The notes under the pieces: generated by a model
Seen by the model: the letters and a program-made list of their open reading frames with translations, nothing else
What the model was told of the DNA's origin: nothing
Database searches by the model: none
Position numbers and translations under genes: made by a program
Shown here: in pieces, positions 16,166-51,075 of the stretch
Layout of the letters: the number at the start of each line of letters is the position of its first letter
Position numbering within the stretch: position 1 is the first letter of the stretch
Virus genome (UHGV): UHGV-1384413
DNA length: 64,000 nucleotides
Strand: one strand, 5' to 3'
DNA from: a virus

Positions 16166-16192
16166 GCCCTGCCCGAAAGGGTGGGGCTTTTT
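16166..16192 (+). terminator. intrinsic terminator (copy 1 of duplicated hairpin)
   Basis: GCCCTGCCC-gaaa-GGGTGGGGC hairpin plus TTTTT; identical hairpin recurs near 26325. Confidence 0.65.
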
Positions 16193-26324: not shown

Positions 26325-26353
26325 GCCCTGCCCGAAAGGGTGGGGCATTTTTG
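26325..26353 (+). terminator. intrinsic terminator (copy 2 of duplicated hairpin)
   Basis: Same GCCCTGCCC-gaaa-GGGTGGGGC hairpin as near 16166, followed by T-run. Confidence 0.65.
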
Positions 26354-29521: not shown

Positions 29522-29847
29522 CAGAGATCATTATTTCAACTGCAGGGTATGTATTCCTGACAATCATTGCTCTGACCATTTTGGTGGCGGTATATGGATT
29601 TGTTATTCTACCTATTCTTGAGACAATTAGTTTGTGTCGGTGTTGGAGAAAGGCTTACGGTCCACAGCCGTGGAGGGACTGGCCCCACCTGGTTCGCATA
29701 GCGTTCTCTTATGCTTATGATCACGCCAGCAGTGCATGCATAACCGGGTATCACGCTCACAATTGGAACTGGGAAGGGTTGGGTAGATGGAATGTTATAA
29801 AGACCATACCTCTACGTATGCACAAGCCTAAAAACAAAGACAGTTGA
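29518..29847 (+). CDS. predicted membrane protein (109 aa)
   Basis: N-terminal hydrophobic helix (YVFLTIIALTILVAVYGFVILPIL); GGGGTGA RBS. Confidence 0.5.
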   Translation: MTEIIISTAGYVFLTIIALTILVAVYGFVILPILETISLCRCWRKAYGPQPWRDWPHLVRIAFSYAYDHASSACITGYHAHNWNWEGLGRWNVIKTIPLRMHKPKNKDS

Positions 29848-29878
29848 TACTTGAAAATCCCTGGCACATCAAGTATAA

Positions 29879-29905
29879 GGAGGATTTCTAAAATGGATTT
29901 CCTCC
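29879..29905 (+). promoter_or_regulatory. hairpin pairing the RBS with an anti-RBS across the start codon
   Basis: GGAGGA ... TCCTCC inverted repeat enclosing the ATG of the 35-codon ORF; approximate coordinates. Confidence 0.35.
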
Positions 29906-30000
29906 TTTTGATATTTTACCTGGCCGGATATTTTAAAATCCTTAGAAAATCAGAAAATGGATCGAAAACTAAAATGGATTTTTCAAGACAGGCGCGATAA
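29893..30000 (+). CDS. small hydrophobic peptide (35 aa), tentative
   Basis: ATG with AGGAGG 7-8 nt upstream; MDFLLLIFYLAGYF...; not in ORF track (below 60 aa); approximate coordinates. Confidence 0.3.
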   Translation: MDFLLLIFYLAGYFKILRKSENGSKTKMDFSRQAR

Positions 30001-30156
30001 GATGTGCTGCTCATTCTATCGTTCGCACCGTACTTTAAGTCACTATTCCAGATTTTCCGCACATACTCTCACCCTTCTACCAGAACTTTCCCAGCTTACC
30101 TCTGACCTTTTATAACAATAAGTCCATTATTATCAGAAAGTTTCGGCACATCTCTC

Positions 30157-30340
30157 TCGGTACTCGATCTGTTTTTCATTTCAAAGACCTGATTTTCTGA
30201 AAATTTTTCTCGATAAATTTCTTAGTACTCGATCTGTTTTTCGTTTTCTGAATCAGATTTTCTGGAAATCGTTCCGGCGCTCGACCTAAAATTTTTGGGG
30301 ACGAAATCGATTTTTCGTTTTCAGAAATGGATTTTTAAAA
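30157..30340. repeat. tandem imperfect direct repeats (about 66-bp units) in AT-rich non-coding region
   Basis: GTACTCGATCTGTTTTTC(A/G)TTT...ATTTTCTG(A/G)AAAT occurs twice in tandem, with further degenerate copies (TCGATTTTTCGTTTTC); approximate coordinates. Confidence 0.5.
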
Positions 30341-30487
30341 TTTATATATGGGAATATTTTATTGGATATTGTTTTATAGGAAATTGTTACGGAGGGTAAT
30401 TAGCATGCTAATTAAATTTATTAAATGCGAGGAGTTCTCATTTAGAATTTTGAATGATAATCATTCTCGTTTGCAGAATAACGGGCA

Positions 30488-30522
30488 CCCCCGGTGATTG
30501 TCTCCCGGCCCCTGTTGCCCCG
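30488..30522. repeat. GC-rich element, copy A
   Basis: CCGGTGATTGTCTCCC core shared with 30623-30659 and, inverted, 39596-39640. Confidence 0.5.
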
Positions 30523-30622
30523 GCTTGTTATTATAGTATCACACAGGACAAAGAAAGCAAGGATTTTTTGCATGAATTTTTAAACGATAATGATAACAGT
30601 TCTCATCTCATGCAACGCCCAT

Positions 30623-30659
30623 CCCCGGTGGTTGTCTCCCCCGTCACCGGTGCCTGCCG
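30623..30659. repeat. GC-rich element, copy B
   Basis: CCGGTGGTTGTCTCCCCCGTCACCGGTGCCTGCC; about 90 percent identical to the reverse complement of 39596-39640. Confidence 0.5.
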
Positions 30660-30868
30660 TCCTTCCGATAAGTATATTGTGCCACCTAGCGGGGCCGCTG
30701 TCAACACCTTTTCAAAAAATTTTCTAACCTGGTTCGTCCACCGCCGCAACCTGGCGGGGCCAACCATGCCGGGGGGCAAAATTATAAAAGTGGTTGCGCC
30801 TGGTCCTGAAAGGCAGTATAAAAGAATCAGGAAAGAGAGATACCCAACAAGGCGAGGAGGAAAATAAA

Positions 30869-31039
30869 ATGAAAGGTAAAAATAAAAAAGATATCTCAAT
30901 GAACTGCAAGGATATTAATGCAAAACGTGAAAAAGCGGCCCGTGATGCCCTGGTCAACTGGTTGGACTATGAAAAAAGGATGGTTGAAGCTGCAGGAGCT
31001 GCCGCCGGAGCTTTTTACCCTAAAAATAATTTAAGATAG
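30869..31039 (+). CDS. small basic protein (56 aa), tentative
   Basis: ATG at M26 of track ORF with GAGGAGG RBS. Confidence 0.35.
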   Translation: MKGKNKKDISMNCKDINAKREKAARDALVNWLDYEKRMVEAAGAAAGAFYPKNNLR

Positions 31040-31871: not shown

Positions 31872-32276
31872 ATGAATAAGAACGTACGCCGCATCATGAA
31901 CGAGCTGGCAAACGATGAAAAAATTATTGACATGCATTTGATCAACATTTGCCGCCGTTGTGTAACATATAACAACCGCGCCGCAAAAGCGCGTGAGATG
32001 AACGCAAAAGGCACCTTAAAGCCCTTCCAGGTGGTGGTAAAGGCCATTAAAGATGTAACTAATACGGCAAACCAGGTACAGGGGAACACCAACGAGAGTA
32101 CCAGTATTGATCCGGCTTACATCATGAAACGGATCCGGACCTGCAAGAACAAAGAGCAAGTGTATAACGTCATAGACTGGTTGGATTCCATGGGCGACGT
32201 GGTGTACAATAGGTTTTCTGCAGCTATCGAGATCCAGCTTGACAGGTTGGACGGGAAAGTACTGAAAACTTACTAA
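31872..32276 (+). CDS. hypothetical protein (134 aa)
   Basis: ORF with AAAGGAAAAAG RBS; TTGACA promoter-like hexamer about 75 bp upstream. Confidence 0.5.
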   Translation: MNKNVRRIMNELANDEKIIDMHLINICRRCVTYNNRAAKAREMNAKGTLKPFQVVVKAIKDVTNTANQVQGNTNESTSIDPAYIMKRIRTCKNKEQVYNVIDWLDSMGDVVYNRFSAAIEIQLDRLDGKVLKTY

Positions 32277-32277
32277 G

Positions 32278-32322
32278 TTTATTTTTAGATGGCCTTGACT
32301 CCAGGGCCATCAATAAAGTAAA
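32278..32322. repeat. conserved 45-bp hairpin element, copy 1
   Basis: TTATTTTTAGATGGCC-ttgactccag-GGCCATCAATAAAGTAAAC directly after stop codon; 7-bp stem GATGGCC/GGCCATC. Confidence 0.55.
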
Positions 32323-32356
32323 CTAATCTCAGTTAAGCGAAAAAGGGGGCTTTAAG

Positions 32357-32476: not shown

Positions 32477-32504
32477 TTGACAAGCTAACTTAGATTGATA
32501 TACT
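32477..32504 (+). promoter_or_regulatory. sigma70-type promoter
   Basis: TTGACA, 16-bp spacer, TATACT; approximate coordinates. Confidence 0.55.
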
Positions 32505-32555
32505 TAAACACGTAAACGGGAAAACTTCCCAGAACACACAAAAGGAGAAAACATT

Positions 32556-32906
32556 ATGAATACTTCCATCACTATGACCGCCGAAGAAAAAGCCCTGCAG
32601 ATCGCCGCTCTGAAAAAACAGATTGCAGAACTTGAAGACAAGATCGACAATTTTGAAATCGACGAAGACAAATACGACGATAAATATGATGAATGGCTAG
32701 ACGAAATCTATGGCGAAATTATGATCGGTTGTATCTCTTTTCTTCCGTCGCATATCCTCAAAGAGCTAGATCCTATCGCTTACCGCTGTGGCTTTAGTGA
32801 TTATATTGATAGCCTAGATATTGAAGATGACGAAGACTATCAGGAATTGCAAGCGGAGCTTGAAGAAGTGAAAGAAGAGCTTGCAGAACTGGAAGAAAAC
32901 GAGTAA
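32556..32906 (+). CDS. hypothetical acidic coiled-coil protein (116 aa)
   Basis: ORF with AAGGAGA RBS; Glu/Asp-rich with heptad-like repeats. Confidence 0.5.
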   Translation: MNTSITMTAEEKALQIAALKKQIAELEDKIDNFEIDEDKYDDKYDEWLDEIYGEIMIGCISFLPSHILKELDPIAYRCGFSDYIDSLDIEDDEDYQELQAELEEVKEELAELEENE

Positions 32907-32907
32907 G

Positions 32908-32952
32908 CTTATTTTTAGATGGCCTTGATTCCAGGGCCATCAATAAAGTAAA
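32908..32952. repeat. conserved 45-bp hairpin element, copy 2
   Basis: Near-identical to copy 1, directly after stop codon. Confidence 0.55.
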
Positions 32953-32995
32953 CTTTACACTGTTAACACTGAACTAATACAGAGGAGTTAAAACC

Positions 32996-33241
32996 ATGGC
33001 CGCACTAATTACCAAATATTATGCCCCTACCAACACCAAAAGCGCCCGTATCATGGTAAAAGGCTTCGGACGTAAAAAGGTTTACACCTGGGATTATTCC
33101 CTAGACATGGAAGACAACTACACCAACGCAATGACCGATTTTATTAATGATCTGAATAAACAGATCTTGACCGACTACAAAGTGACCGATATTGCCTACG
33201 TCGGGGAAGGCGGGATCTGTTTTGTAGGCATTGTGAAATAG
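32996..33241 (+). CDS. hypothetical protein (81 aa)
   Basis: ORF with GAGGAG RBS. Confidence 0.5.
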   Translation: MAALITKYYAPTNTKSARIMVKGFGRKKVYTWDYSLDMEDNYTNAMTDFINDLNKQILTDYKVTDIAYVGEGGICFVGIVK

Positions 33242-33287
33242 TTATTTTTTCGGTGGTCCTGGCTGCAGGGCCATCTATAAAGATAAT
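33242..33287. repeat. conserved hairpin element, diverged copy 3
   Basis: TTATTTTTTCGGTGGTCCTGGCTGCAGGGCCATCTATAAAGATAAT; same position relative to stop codon. Confidence 0.4.
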
Positions 33288-33316
33288 TTATTAACACCAT
33301 GAAAGGAGAAAGTAAC

Positions 33317-34098: not shown

Positions 34099-34359
34099 AT
34101 GCGTAAATTAAAAAATTTTGATAAGGTTGATGTTGTCCTGAATAATTTTTACTACTGCAACAACAAGGCCATTTGGTGGCGTGATAGTTCCACCGATAAA
34201 GTCAAGGCGCGCTTTCTCCAGGGGCACTGGCAAGGCCGCCCAGTGATTAAAATCATGGGGCAATTGGCAGCGTTTAAAAATTGCCGCCGTGTTGATGACG
34301 TTGAAGAGATTTTAAACATTTTGCGCCACAATAATTTAAAAAATAGCGTTGACAAGTAA
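34099..34359 (+). CDS. hypothetical protein (86 aa)
   Basis: ORF with AAAGGAG RBS. Confidence 0.5.
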   Translation: MRKLKNFDKVDVVLNNFYYCNNKAIWWRDSSTDKVKARFLQGHWQGRPVIKIMGQLAAFKNCRRVDDVEEILNILRHNNLKNSVDK

Positions 34360-34375
34360 ATCTAGATAAGTATAC
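34348..34375 (+). promoter_or_regulatory. sigma70-type promoter overlapping the 3-prime end of the upstream gene
   Basis: TTGACA, 16-bp spacer, TATACT; approximate coordinates. Confidence 0.5.
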
Positions 34376-34433
34376 TTAAACACACAGGCGGGAAAACTTC
34401 CCGCCACTAACAAAGAAAATAGGAGAAAATATC

Positions 34434-36440: not shown

Positions 36441-36641
36441 ATGAGTAACAATATCCGCGTTATTAACTTCAAAAAAGAAGAAAAAATTGCCGTGCTGATT
36501 GACGGTCAAGAAATCTTTAAAGGTGATTATGAAGATCATCAAACGGCGATTAGTATCACTCGCGTGATTGGTTACCATAATTTTTACCCTCAAGGCGCTG
36601 AGGCAGCAGTAAAACGAATTAAAGAGATTGTAGGCCTGTAA
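36441..36641 (+). CDS. hypothetical protein (66 aa)
   Basis: ORF with AAAGGAGA RBS. Confidence 0.5.
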   Translation: MSNNIRVINFKKEEKIAVLIDGQEIFKGDYEDHQTAISITRVIGYHNFYPQGAEAAVKRIKEIVGL

Positions 36642-36643
36642 AA

Positions 36644-36688
36644 TTTATTTTTAGATGGCCTTGATTCCAGGGCCATCAATAAAGTAAA
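36644..36688. repeat. conserved 45-bp hairpin element, copy 4
   Basis: Near-identical to copies 1 and 2, directly after stop codon. Confidence 0.55.
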
Positions 36689-36726
36689 TTTAAACCCTGT
36701 TAAAATAATCAGTGCAAAAAGGAGTA

Positions 36727-37198: not shown

Positions 37199-37255
37199 TA
37201 AGAGTTGTCGAGGGGGCTATGCCTCCAATCATTAACAGAAACAGGAGTTAAAACT

Positions 37256-37540
37256 ATGGCTATTGTTACCGCTGGCGATGTAGTAGAAATGGAAGCAAAA
37301 TACTTAAAAGCGGGTATGCATATCCTACGGAATGATCAAGAGTTATTATTAACGATGGTCGACTATAATCCCGGCCAGGATTATCCAAGCATCGACTACT
37401 TTTTTGAGTATGTTGATGAAGAGTTGAAAGAGGATGAGGCCTATTGCGGTGAGTTCTGCAACTTCTTTTGTCCTGATGAGGTTGTAAAGGTTATTTATCA
37501 ACCTGGCGTAGCTTTCCCGCTGCACGCTATCAATAAATAA
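37256..37540 (+). CDS. hypothetical protein
   Basis: ATG at M18 of track ORF with AGGAG RBS. Confidence 0.5.
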   Translation: MAIVTAGDVVEMEAKYLKAGMHILRNDQELLLTMVDYNPGQDYPSIDYFFEYVDEELKEDEAYCGEFCNFFCPDEVVKVIYQPGVAFPLHAINK

Positions 37541-37595
37541 ACCTGGCGGGGCCGAAAAGGCCCCCAATTATGAAAATAAAGATAGGTTAATCATC

Positions 37596-39550: not shown

Positions 39551-39579
39551 AAACAGGGCTTGCAATGGTCCTGTTTTTT
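39551..39579 (+). terminator. intrinsic terminator
   Basis: AACAGGGC...GTCCTGTT hairpin followed by TTTTTT; approximate coordinates. Confidence 0.55.
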
Positions 39580-39595
39580 GTTATACTTATTCCAC

Positions 39596-39640
39596 GGCAG
39601 GCACCTGGCGACGGGGGGAGACAATCACCGGGCCTGCCTG
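39596..39640. repeat. GC-rich element, copy C (inverted relative to copies A and B)
   Basis: Reverse complement matches 30623-30659 over about 35 bp; flanked by GGCAGGC/GCCTGCC inverted repeat. Confidence 0.5.
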
Positions 39641-39663
39641 TCATATAAGAACTATAAAAACCG

Positions 39664-39746: not shown

Positions 39747-40019
39747 ATGTCAAGCTGGATTAATCAAGAAGTCGAATCACGTTTTAATGCTATCTGGGAT
39801 CTCGTAGAAAAAGAGGACGGAACATCAAGCCCCTACCTCAACAATTTGGAATTCCATTTTGTGGAAGCGATGAACGCAGAACATGATCACGAAGGTGGCG
39901 CGGATGAGTTCGCTAAAGGTTATGGCTTTAACAATGCCAACGAAATGATCGAGTCGGTTGTACTCCAAGCCGAGGAAGATTATCAATTAAAAACGCTTGA
40001 ATTCTGCCGCCGCAAGTAA
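39747..40019 (+). CDS. hypothetical protein (90 aa)
   Basis: ORF with AGAGAGGA RBS. Confidence 0.5.
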   Translation: MSSWINQEVESRFNAIWDLVEKEDGTSSPYLNNLEFHFVEAMNAEHDHEGGADEFAKGYGFNNANEMIESVVLQAEEDYQLKTLEFCRRK

Positions 40020-50778: not shown

Positions 50779-50790
50779 TATCTTCTCCTT

Positions 50791-51075
50791 TTATTTTTCT
50801 GGGTTTGGCAGATATTGCACATTGGCAGGAGGAACACCGGATAGCTCCCAAACAACCATAGTGCTGTACCCTGGCACACTTCTAACATTTAAAAGAGTAG
50901 GAGCACCAACACATTTAAACTTCCTTTTCCCAAATCCGTTCTCCATCATAACCCAGTATCCGGTATCCTGATCACCGGGAATTTGTGTTCCATCATCGTC
51001 CACCCAGCGGACGGTCCATTTCGATACAGCAACGGCTCGGTATTTAAACTTTTTAAACCACTCAAACAGTTTCAT
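50791..51075 (-). CDS. hypothetical protein
   Basis: Start moved to internal ATG (M13 of track ORF) to reduce overlap. Confidence 0.45.
   Translation of the reverse strand: MKLFEWFKKFKYRAVAVSKWTVRWVDDDGTQIPGDQDTGYWVMMENGFGKRKFKCVGAPTLLNVRSVPGYSTMVVWELSGVPPANVQYLPNPEK

Follow-up and report, generated by a model that had tools for sequence, protein, structure and literature searches.

In phage T7 the primary origin of replication consists of an AT-rich region preceded by two promoters in tandem, phi1.1A and phi1.1B. The T4 origins oriF, oriG and oriE also have promoters that fire into AT-rich DNA, and oriE combines iterons with an origin transcript. At lambda ori a palindrome flanks the AT-rich tract. 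Promoter-proximal elements of another kind, the cis-acting RNA elements lambda nut and HK022 put, belong to phage early operons, and the antisense RNAs P1 c4 and P4 CI belong to the C4 family of Rfam. The iterons and AT-rich tract of lambda ori depend on transcriptional activation from pR (PMC7466680).

The locus studied here lies in a 64-kb stretch of DNA, which we call the window. The region around it matches 122 phage records at 80-95% identity, mostly Escherichia Vequintavirus phages such as rV5, FFH2 and ECP2303, and the window therefore represents an rV5-like virulent myophage. It carries a GC-rich element in three copies, which we name A, B and C. Copies A and B point leftward through boxes that resemble Fur operators toward a set of iteron-like repeats; copy C stands alone about 9 kb away. 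The rV5 genome paper sought an origin by skew analysis and found none, and its genome map labels a box simply as ‘non-coding’ (PMC3606486). Literature searches gave no relevant paper on Fur boxes, or on origins, in phages of the rV5 type.

As in T7 and T4, one or two promoters, here predicted ones in tandem, point into an AT-rich region near replication genes, and, like T7, this phage encodes a gp4-type primase-helicase. The promoter-like sites are conserved and have the orientation needed to fire into AT-rich DNA; the -35 element at copy A is weak, and the corresponding promoter in phage PAK_P3 is one without a mapped start. Unlike those of T7 and T4, the promoters are of the host sigma70 type, the conserved GAGACAAnCACCG block of the leader has no counterpart in either phage, Fur-like operators lie between leader and iterons, and both priming and origin activity are putative. 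The likeness to lambda ori consists of direct repeats beside an AT-rich tract, predicted transcription passing nearby, and a GC-rich, partly palindromic block that flanks the tract. The region differs from lambda ori in being intergenic rather than within an initiator gene (no initiator gene was identified, the neighboring genes matching only families of unknown function), and its candidate sites for host factors are like Fur boxes rather than binding sites of DnaA or IHF. With nut and put the element shares its occurrence in several copies per genome and in both genomic orientations, just downstream of an early promoter, with constant relative orientation and the potential to form a hairpin. 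We know of no sequence resemblance to nut or put, however, and here two copies lead into non-coding DNA rather than operons and the structure is weakly supported. The short, repeated, complementary elements could pair in trans, as P1 c4 and P4 CI do in phage early regions, but they have no Rfam match even at permissive thresholds, and the promoter orientation argues for same-sense transcription of all copies.

Results

The element occurs three times in the window

As first written, the motif reads CCGGTG(A/G)TTGTCTCCC, and it has exactly three occurrences in the window, at 30491 (+), 30625 (+) and 39616-39631 (-). The exact 16-mer CCGGTGRTTGTCTCCC is present at all three sites (30491-30506 and 30625-30640 on the plus strand, 39616-39631 on the minus strand), against an expectation of 0.47 chance matches when three mismatches are allowed. 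This bears out the preliminary description of two direct copies and one inverted. Its figure of about 90% identity between copy B and the reverse complement of copy C was also accurate, with 34 identical positions over some 37 shared columns and two gaps (30623-30659 against 39596-39640). On the other flank it is copy A that matches copy C, as a 29-nt inverted repeat with 86% complementarity (30478-30506 against 39616-39644; repeat I3). Copy C is thus like B in one flank and like A in the other. The stem-forming flanks ascribed to two of the copies are indeed there, as GGCAGGC/GCCTGCC around copy C (39596-39602 and 39632-39638) and CCGGTG/CACCGG at copy B. Copy A gives a covariance-model match of 45 bits at 30473-30528 (-). 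The exhaustive motif search that had been suggested, which we ran over the 64 kb with a profile HMM of the core, recovered the three copies and no fourth, the next match having E = 1.9. Positions are collected in Table 1.

Table 1. Positions of the element, its predicted promoters and neighboring features in the window.
Feature	Position	Strand	Description
ORF-free control region	29848..30868		1,021 bp; both Fur-like boxes, the iterons and copies A and B lie within it
Iteron-like direct repeats (three)	30150..30335	-	about 47 nt each, spaced 65-74 nt (family D3)
Fur-operator-like box TTGAATGATAATCATTCTC	30450..30468		23 nt past copy A in the direction of predicted transcription
Copy A	30480..30513	-	reads GGGGCCGG GAGACAATCACCG GGGG TGCCCG on the minus strand
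Predicted promoter into copy A	30530..30535	-	perfect -10 TATAAT, 25 nt before the core; poor -35 TTGCTT, 19-nt spacing
Fur-operator-like box GATAATGATAACAGTTCTC	30586..30604		just past copy B in the direction of predicted transcription
Copy B	30614..30646	-	reads CACCGGTGACGGGG GAGACAACCACCG GGGA TGGGCG on the minus strand
Predicted promoter into copy B	30676..30704	-	TTGACA, 17-nt spacer, TG-extended CACAAT; end of -10 is 37 nt before the core
Predicted promoter into copy C	39560..39587	+	TTGCAA, 16-nt spacer, TG-extended TATACT; end of -10 is 30 nt before the core
Copy C	39596..39642	+	predicted hairpin, stem GGCAGGC...GCCTGCC, loop holding GAGACAATCA

Across 28 unique units of the element from the window and its relatives, the block GAGACAAnCACCG-N4-TG is invariant or nearly so. 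A 137-aa ORF (30454-30867) spans copies A and B, and a search for a protein-coding reading found no ORF conserved across relatives.

A second GC-rich motif, ACCT(A/G)GCGGGGCC, also occurs three times in the window (30684-30696, 30749-30761 and 37541-37553). One copy forms the spacer of the copy B promoter and one lies within the hairpin GGGGCCGAAAAGGCCCC that follows ORF 37205-37540; the motif is found twice more in locus L044.

A predicted promoter lies at a fixed distance upstream of the element

The promoter scan placed the copy B and copy C promoters in the same orientation relative to the element. The copy C promoter overlaps the terminator of the upstream gene. The site at copy A fails strict promoter criteria, having no usable -35, and its counterparts in relatives are good promoters. 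We counted promoters over 32 distinct units drawn from 27 loci in many phages. In the sense that is minus for A and B and plus for C, a promoter-like site lies within 90 nt upstream of 23 of these units, and in 21 the core begins 27-37 nt downstream of a sigma70-type -10. In the opposite orientation such a site accompanies only four of the 32, and 8.7% of background 90-nt windows score as promoter-like. Between genera the promoter hexamers are kept and the spacers vary. Because the association is so one-sided (23 against 4), the functional strand is probably the reverse of the motif as first written, and we read it as GAGACAAnCACCG-N4-TG.

The preliminary description placed the copies near promoters or terminators. 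The nearness to promoters holds and can be stated more precisely, since the element follows a sigma70-type promoter of its own at a constant distance and reads in the reverse sense of the written motif. The terminator scan flagged no intrinsic terminator at any copy on either strand, and the sequences after the hairpins are not T-rich. A resemblance to the RfaH ops site was discarded as coincidence; GGCGGTAG occurs in locus L044 and is found neither in the window nor in rV5.

The element is conserved across phage genera

With copy C as the query, 129 phage records were matched, 117 of them over at least 80% of the query length, and the related genomes have two or three places each for the element. 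It is present in Vequintavirus, Seunavirus, Certrevirus, Mydovirus, Phapecoctavirus, Erwinia phage Hena1 and Pseudomonas phages of the genus Nankokuvirus (PAK_P3, KPP10), and pattern and covariance-model searches added the Pseudomonas phages PAO1_Ab03, KPP10, PAK_P3 and PsgM04F. Across Vequintavirinae and Phapecoctavirus it lies at matching positions. The conservation in related genomes on which the preliminary description made its proposal depend is therefore real. Copy A together with the adjoining AT-rich box segment retains 80-90% identity in five or more further genera. The phages concerned are much more distant ones, namely phages of Klebsiella, Proteus, Cronobacter, Pectobacterium, Serratia and Erwinia, Salmonella PVP-SE1, and Phapecoctavirus, and such identity is unusual for non-coding DNA at that distance. 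Most matches to the exact 16-mer in IMG/VR proved to be chance hits inside an unrelated coding sequence of a prophage.

The element is a real, conserved family of promoter-proximal leaders, and as far as these searches show it is undescribed. Full-text literature searches with the core sequence on either strand returned unrelated papers only. No Rfam family matched the window at gathering score; a permissive scan of 29800-31000 gave two chance-level matches (E about 10), both to animal lncRNA models, and seven related loci yielded no match with an E value of 1 or less. By covariance-model score the element belongs to none of C4 antisense RNA, RyhB, PrrF, the riboswitches or the ribozymes.

In Seunavirus, Certrevirus, Mydovirus, Phapecoctavirus and Hena1, another conserved GC-rich element, some 85 nt long (...CGCCACCCCACGGCG...GGAAGGTGGATCGCCGGTAG...), adjoins copy A and comes with a predicted promoter (loci L123 1380-1460, L124, L125, L126, L198, L247 1085-1175, L249, L250, L276 and L283). 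A consensus structure that includes some compensatory pairs is predicted for this element, and no Rfam family matches it. The window lacks it and has copy B in its place.

Copies A and B lie in an ORF-free region with Fur-like boxes and iterons

The preliminary description gave the setting of the copies as AT-rich intergenic DNA, which is correct as far as it goes but missed the iterons and the Fur-like operators, as well as the ORF-free region of 1 kb. That region is flanked by plus-strand early genes and contains short ORFs only, none of them conserved. Gene calls within it differ between records, with a 92-aa ORF in the rV5 record, other small ORFs in MiataMamis and none in many others. Genes for a Dda-like helicase, a gp4-type primase-helicase and DNA polymerase lie on the same strand at 13.2-21.9 kb, 8-17 kb upstream, and from about 26 to 43 kb the window is dense with small plus-strand ORFs, many with their own promoters and hairpins. 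No tRNA gene was found in the 64-kb window.

Both boxes match the E. coli Fur consensus GATAATGATAATCATTATC at 15 of 19 positions, and they are the only two such sites in the 64 kb. By consensus match these flanking boxes, and not the GC-rich core itself, are candidate Fur boxes. Patzer and Hantke (2001) reportedly described the Fur operator of the E. coli mntH promoter. It is this promoter that the box by copy A resembles, the shared GATAATCATTCTCGTTTG..GAATAAC giving 92.9% identity over 28 query bases with one 2-base gap; the match falls at a listed cluster of Fur sites that lies 56 nt upstream of mntH, which both Fur and MntR repress (PMC2189734). The box at 30586-30604 has no counterpart in the E. 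coli chromosome. Unlike the mntH operator, the phage site is the flank of the element rather than its GC-rich core, belongs to a virulent phage and has no iron-related gene nearby, and Fur binding to it is a prediction.

A palindrome, AATGA(G/T)AATCATTCTC, was seen in over 120 viral contigs that come from many environments and are otherwise unrelated (IMG/VR loci L127-L246), often in two to four copies in non-coding DNA and often near contig ends, which suggests that Fur-type operators are common in phage genomes. In one Salmonella phage record an ‘attL’ repeat stands by the Fur box where the record begins; it was considered as a physical genome end and set aside, as it looks like an assembly overlap.

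Beyond the boxes, the region has two features of an iteron-type origin, three regularly spaced direct repeats in non-coding DNA and an adjacent AT-rich tract. The iteron core ATCGAGTAC is found on the minus strand at 30168-30160 and 30233-30225, and it also lies downstream of the element in PVP-SE1, CR3, ChuuTotoro, PAO1_Ab03, PAK_P3 and L273. The order of the module is the same throughout: a promoter, the leader with its invariant block, 100-250 nt of AT-rich DNA, and two to four iterons (ATCGAGTAC or GTCGAGACC). We found it in the same relative orientation in PVP-SE1, CR3, ChuuTotoro, L273, PAO1_Ab03 and PAK_P3. The order recurs in every related group whose flank was read, and loci L319 and L333 keep the order with iterons of another sequence. 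The core ATCGAGTAC is kept across Vequintavirinae, and PAK_P3-like Pseudomonas phages carry GTCGAGTAC.

The leader is conserved more in sequence than in structure

Single-sequence folds usually show an imperfect hairpin, beginning within a few nucleotides of the predicted start site, with the invariant block in its loop or next to it. Copy C has a predicted fold of -23.8 kcal/mol (z = -2.58 against shuffles). Copy A of CR3 (z = -3.35) and L329 (-2.36) likewise fold better than shuffles; the values for copies B and A are -1.27 and -0.12. RNAalifold on a plain sequence alignment found no consensus structure. A structure-guided alignment yielded an outer helix, joining AUAGCG at the RNA 5’ end with CGCUAU, that is 83-86% paired. 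It includes one compensatory pair (AU/GC, with GU intermediates) and frequent G-U pairs that would be C-A mismatches on the other strand. On the wide set of sequences covariation was no better than in shuffles (122 of 500), and the inner helix differs in register between sequences. Of the check on RNA structure and covariation that the preliminary description proposed, the outer-helix pairing is thus the part that came out in favor, against an absent RNAalifold consensus and covariation without significance. Sequence conservation exceeds structural conservation, and a 5’ RNA hairpin is therefore plausible but undemonstrated. The structured RNA motif that the same description had offered as one option is plausible to that extent, and weakly supported.

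Mean GC content is 65% in the leader and 34% in the 100 nt after it. An excess of G over C is strong only in the rV5-type copies A and B, with a mean skew of +0.09. As this skew is not kept elsewhere, an R-loop driven by excess G is not a conserved feature, and we dropped that mechanism. A G-quadruplex was also rejected; by eye, four G-tracts of at least three are present in copy A only, not in B or C.

Copy C and transcript data from PAK_P3

Flanked by a terminator and a second promoter, copy C precedes ORF 39747-40019, whose mRNA it would head. Counterparts of copy C in CR3 and POP17 have a Fur-like box downstream of the leader. A shared gene after copy C was looked for and rejected, the downstream ORFs in the window and in CR3 being unrelated. 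Iterons are found beside copies A and B only. A role at an origin alone therefore cannot explain all three copies, and we read copy C as the same leader reused outside the iteron region.

Start-site mapping is available for one related phage, the distant relative PAK_P3, in which the counterpart promoter has a weak -10 (CATTCT). Its ONT-cappable-seq data list no start site between 48,439 and 51,049, where one is predicted at about 50,880 on the minus strand. The method misses RNAs shorter than about 80 nt (PMC10914365). Transcript mapping, another of the checks first proposed, accordingly gave no support from this phage. Among the plus-strand reads from upstream promoters, the longest stop at 50,787-50,897, at the element. 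The PAK_P3 RNA-seq paper does not discuss the region.

PAK_P3-like phages also contain a 696-aa minus-strand ORF with 76-100% amino acid identity in 41 records (L267 4855-6945 (-), L345 3723-5806 (-)) and no Pfam match. At this ORF the PAK_P3 record annotates small plus-strand ORFs and the ‘putative antisense RNAs’ as16 and as17 instead. It is possible that as16 and as17 are the mRNA of a missed gene.

Discussion

We read the three copies as paralogous promoter-proximal leaders, A and B for origin-directed transcripts that are possibly Fur-gated and C for an early mRNA. The reading is tentative, and we put its probability at about 0.45. The motif, its conservation, its orientation and association with promoters, and the module order are results; transcription, hairpin formation, the origin and Fur binding are inferences. 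The elements are GC-rich, some 45-55 nt long, and marked by the invariant GAGACAAnCACCG-N4-TG. Each may be transcribed from its own host sigma70-type promoter, on the minus strand for A and B and on the plus strand for C, and the first 50 nt or so of the RNA would fold into an imperfect 5’ hairpin with the invariant block in or beside the loop. The progression from promoter through AT-rich DNA to iterons is laid out as at replication origins, and it is for this reason that A and B are read as origin-directed leaders. Their promoters, in tandem, would fire against the flanking genes, through the AT-rich stretch and the Fur-like boxes and into the iterons. The transcripts may serve in transcriptional activation or priming of the putative origin, possibly gated by host Fur. 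Copy C would place the same leader at the head of an early mRNA. The invariant block might be recognized by some factor, either as RNA or as DNA.

The main rival takes recognition as DNA to be the whole function. The element would then be an operator, located at about +20 to +40 of the three promoters, with GAGACAAnCACCG-N4-TG as the site for a conserved protein of the phage or the host. Binding would repress or time the promoters, for example where an initiator active at the origin also controls its own expression. It is an asymmetric sequence, rather than base pairs, that is conserved; its spacing from the -10 is fixed, and the motif is kept where flanking stems differ or are lost (copy B, L281). 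The fixed distance is, however, equally expected of a hairpin at the 5’ end of an RNA, the G-U-compatible substitutions in the outer helix favor the RNA reading, and no candidate binding protein was found among the neighboring genes. We keep the protein-binding site of the preliminary description as the leading competitor, and consider it unlikely. The opposite strand might instead be the one that matters. Plus-strand RNAs of copies A and B, C-rich and made from Fur-repressed promoters that overlap the Fur boxes, could pair with the copy C leader in the manner of P1 c4, P4 CI or the tandem Fur-regulated sRNAs of the PrrF type. Copies A and B are inverted relative to C, and their plus-strand RNAs would be about 90% complementary to it over some 37 nt. 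The box by copy A resembles the mntH promoter-operator, and a plus-strand promoter of TTGAAT, an 18-nt spacer and CAGAAT can be read there, where L044 has TTTAAA-18-TATATT. Yet promoter-like sites in that orientation accompany just four of the 32 units, and the CR3 copy C unit, with its Fur-like box downstream of the leader, lacks a promoter facing that way. Nor is the element followed by an intrinsic terminator on either strand, and there is no match to Rfam C4 or any other family. We regard antisense pairing as improbable, and a Fur-repressed sRNA like RyhB or PrrF was rejected as the main reading, since its promoter is not conserved and no terminator follows.

Two further readings, like antisense pairing, are less likely than an operator. 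The ends of the longest PAK_P3 reads at the element, and the GC-rich hairpins themselves, are what one would expect of a barrier or insulator that stops plus-strand read-through from the early genes into the ORF-free region. Such a function would make the invariant loop sequence and the attached promoter superfluous, though, and no U-tract follows the hairpins, the terminator scan flags none of them, and copy C is already downstream of a normal terminator; we think a barrier slightly less probable still. The miniature mobile element named in the preliminary description, or a neutral duplication without function, would account for a short intergenic repeat. It fits poorly with only three copies, their matching positions across genera, an invariant core, and flanks that carry neither terminal inverted repeats nor target-site duplications, and we have all but abandoned it.

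Returning to the leader reading, it is tempting to speculate beyond it. The ORF-free region could be an origin common to rV5-like, phAPEC8-like and PAK_P3-like myophages. Leftward transcripts led by GAGACAAnCACCG would be needed for its activity and, in the enterobacterial phages, gated by host Fur on the operators that resemble the mntH site, so that replication would be coupled to iron, with copy C extending the control to the early gene block. We hold this wider proposal to be doubtful. If the element is only a leader hairpin that stabilizes RNA, the finding is an ordinary one. The conserved non-coding module of promoter, invariant leader, AT-rich tract and iterons is a concrete candidate for an origin and control region in rV5-like, Phapecoctavirus and PAK_P3-like phages, groups in wide use for phage therapy and for typing. 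The Fur-like operators, one of them nearly identical to the host mntH Fur site, suggest a possible link between host iron status and the development of a virulent phage.

Related records and other repeats in the window

The records nearest to the window (MG065654.1, MG065666.1 and others) are 100% identical over copy C and are labeled ‘Campylobacter phage’; they are Vequintavirus-like genomes of about 135-141 kb. Several other short repeats lie between genes of the window. A 63-nt intergenic cassette occurs four times (32274-32336, 32904-32966, 33238-33300 and 36640-36702; family D1) and contains a hairpin, GATGGCC...GGCCATC, with TTGAC embedded in it; the cassette has the look of a unit that joins a terminator to a promoter between early genes. 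A 66-nt repeat at 32477-32542 and 34349-34414 (family D4) holds a strong predicted promoter (TTGACA, 16-nt spacer, TATACT), followed in the leader by a small hairpin, GGGAAAACTTCCC. Finally, the terminator-like hairpin GCCCTGCCCGAAAGGGTGGGGC, followed by a T-run, is present in two near-identical copies at 16166-16192 and 26325-26351 (family D13).
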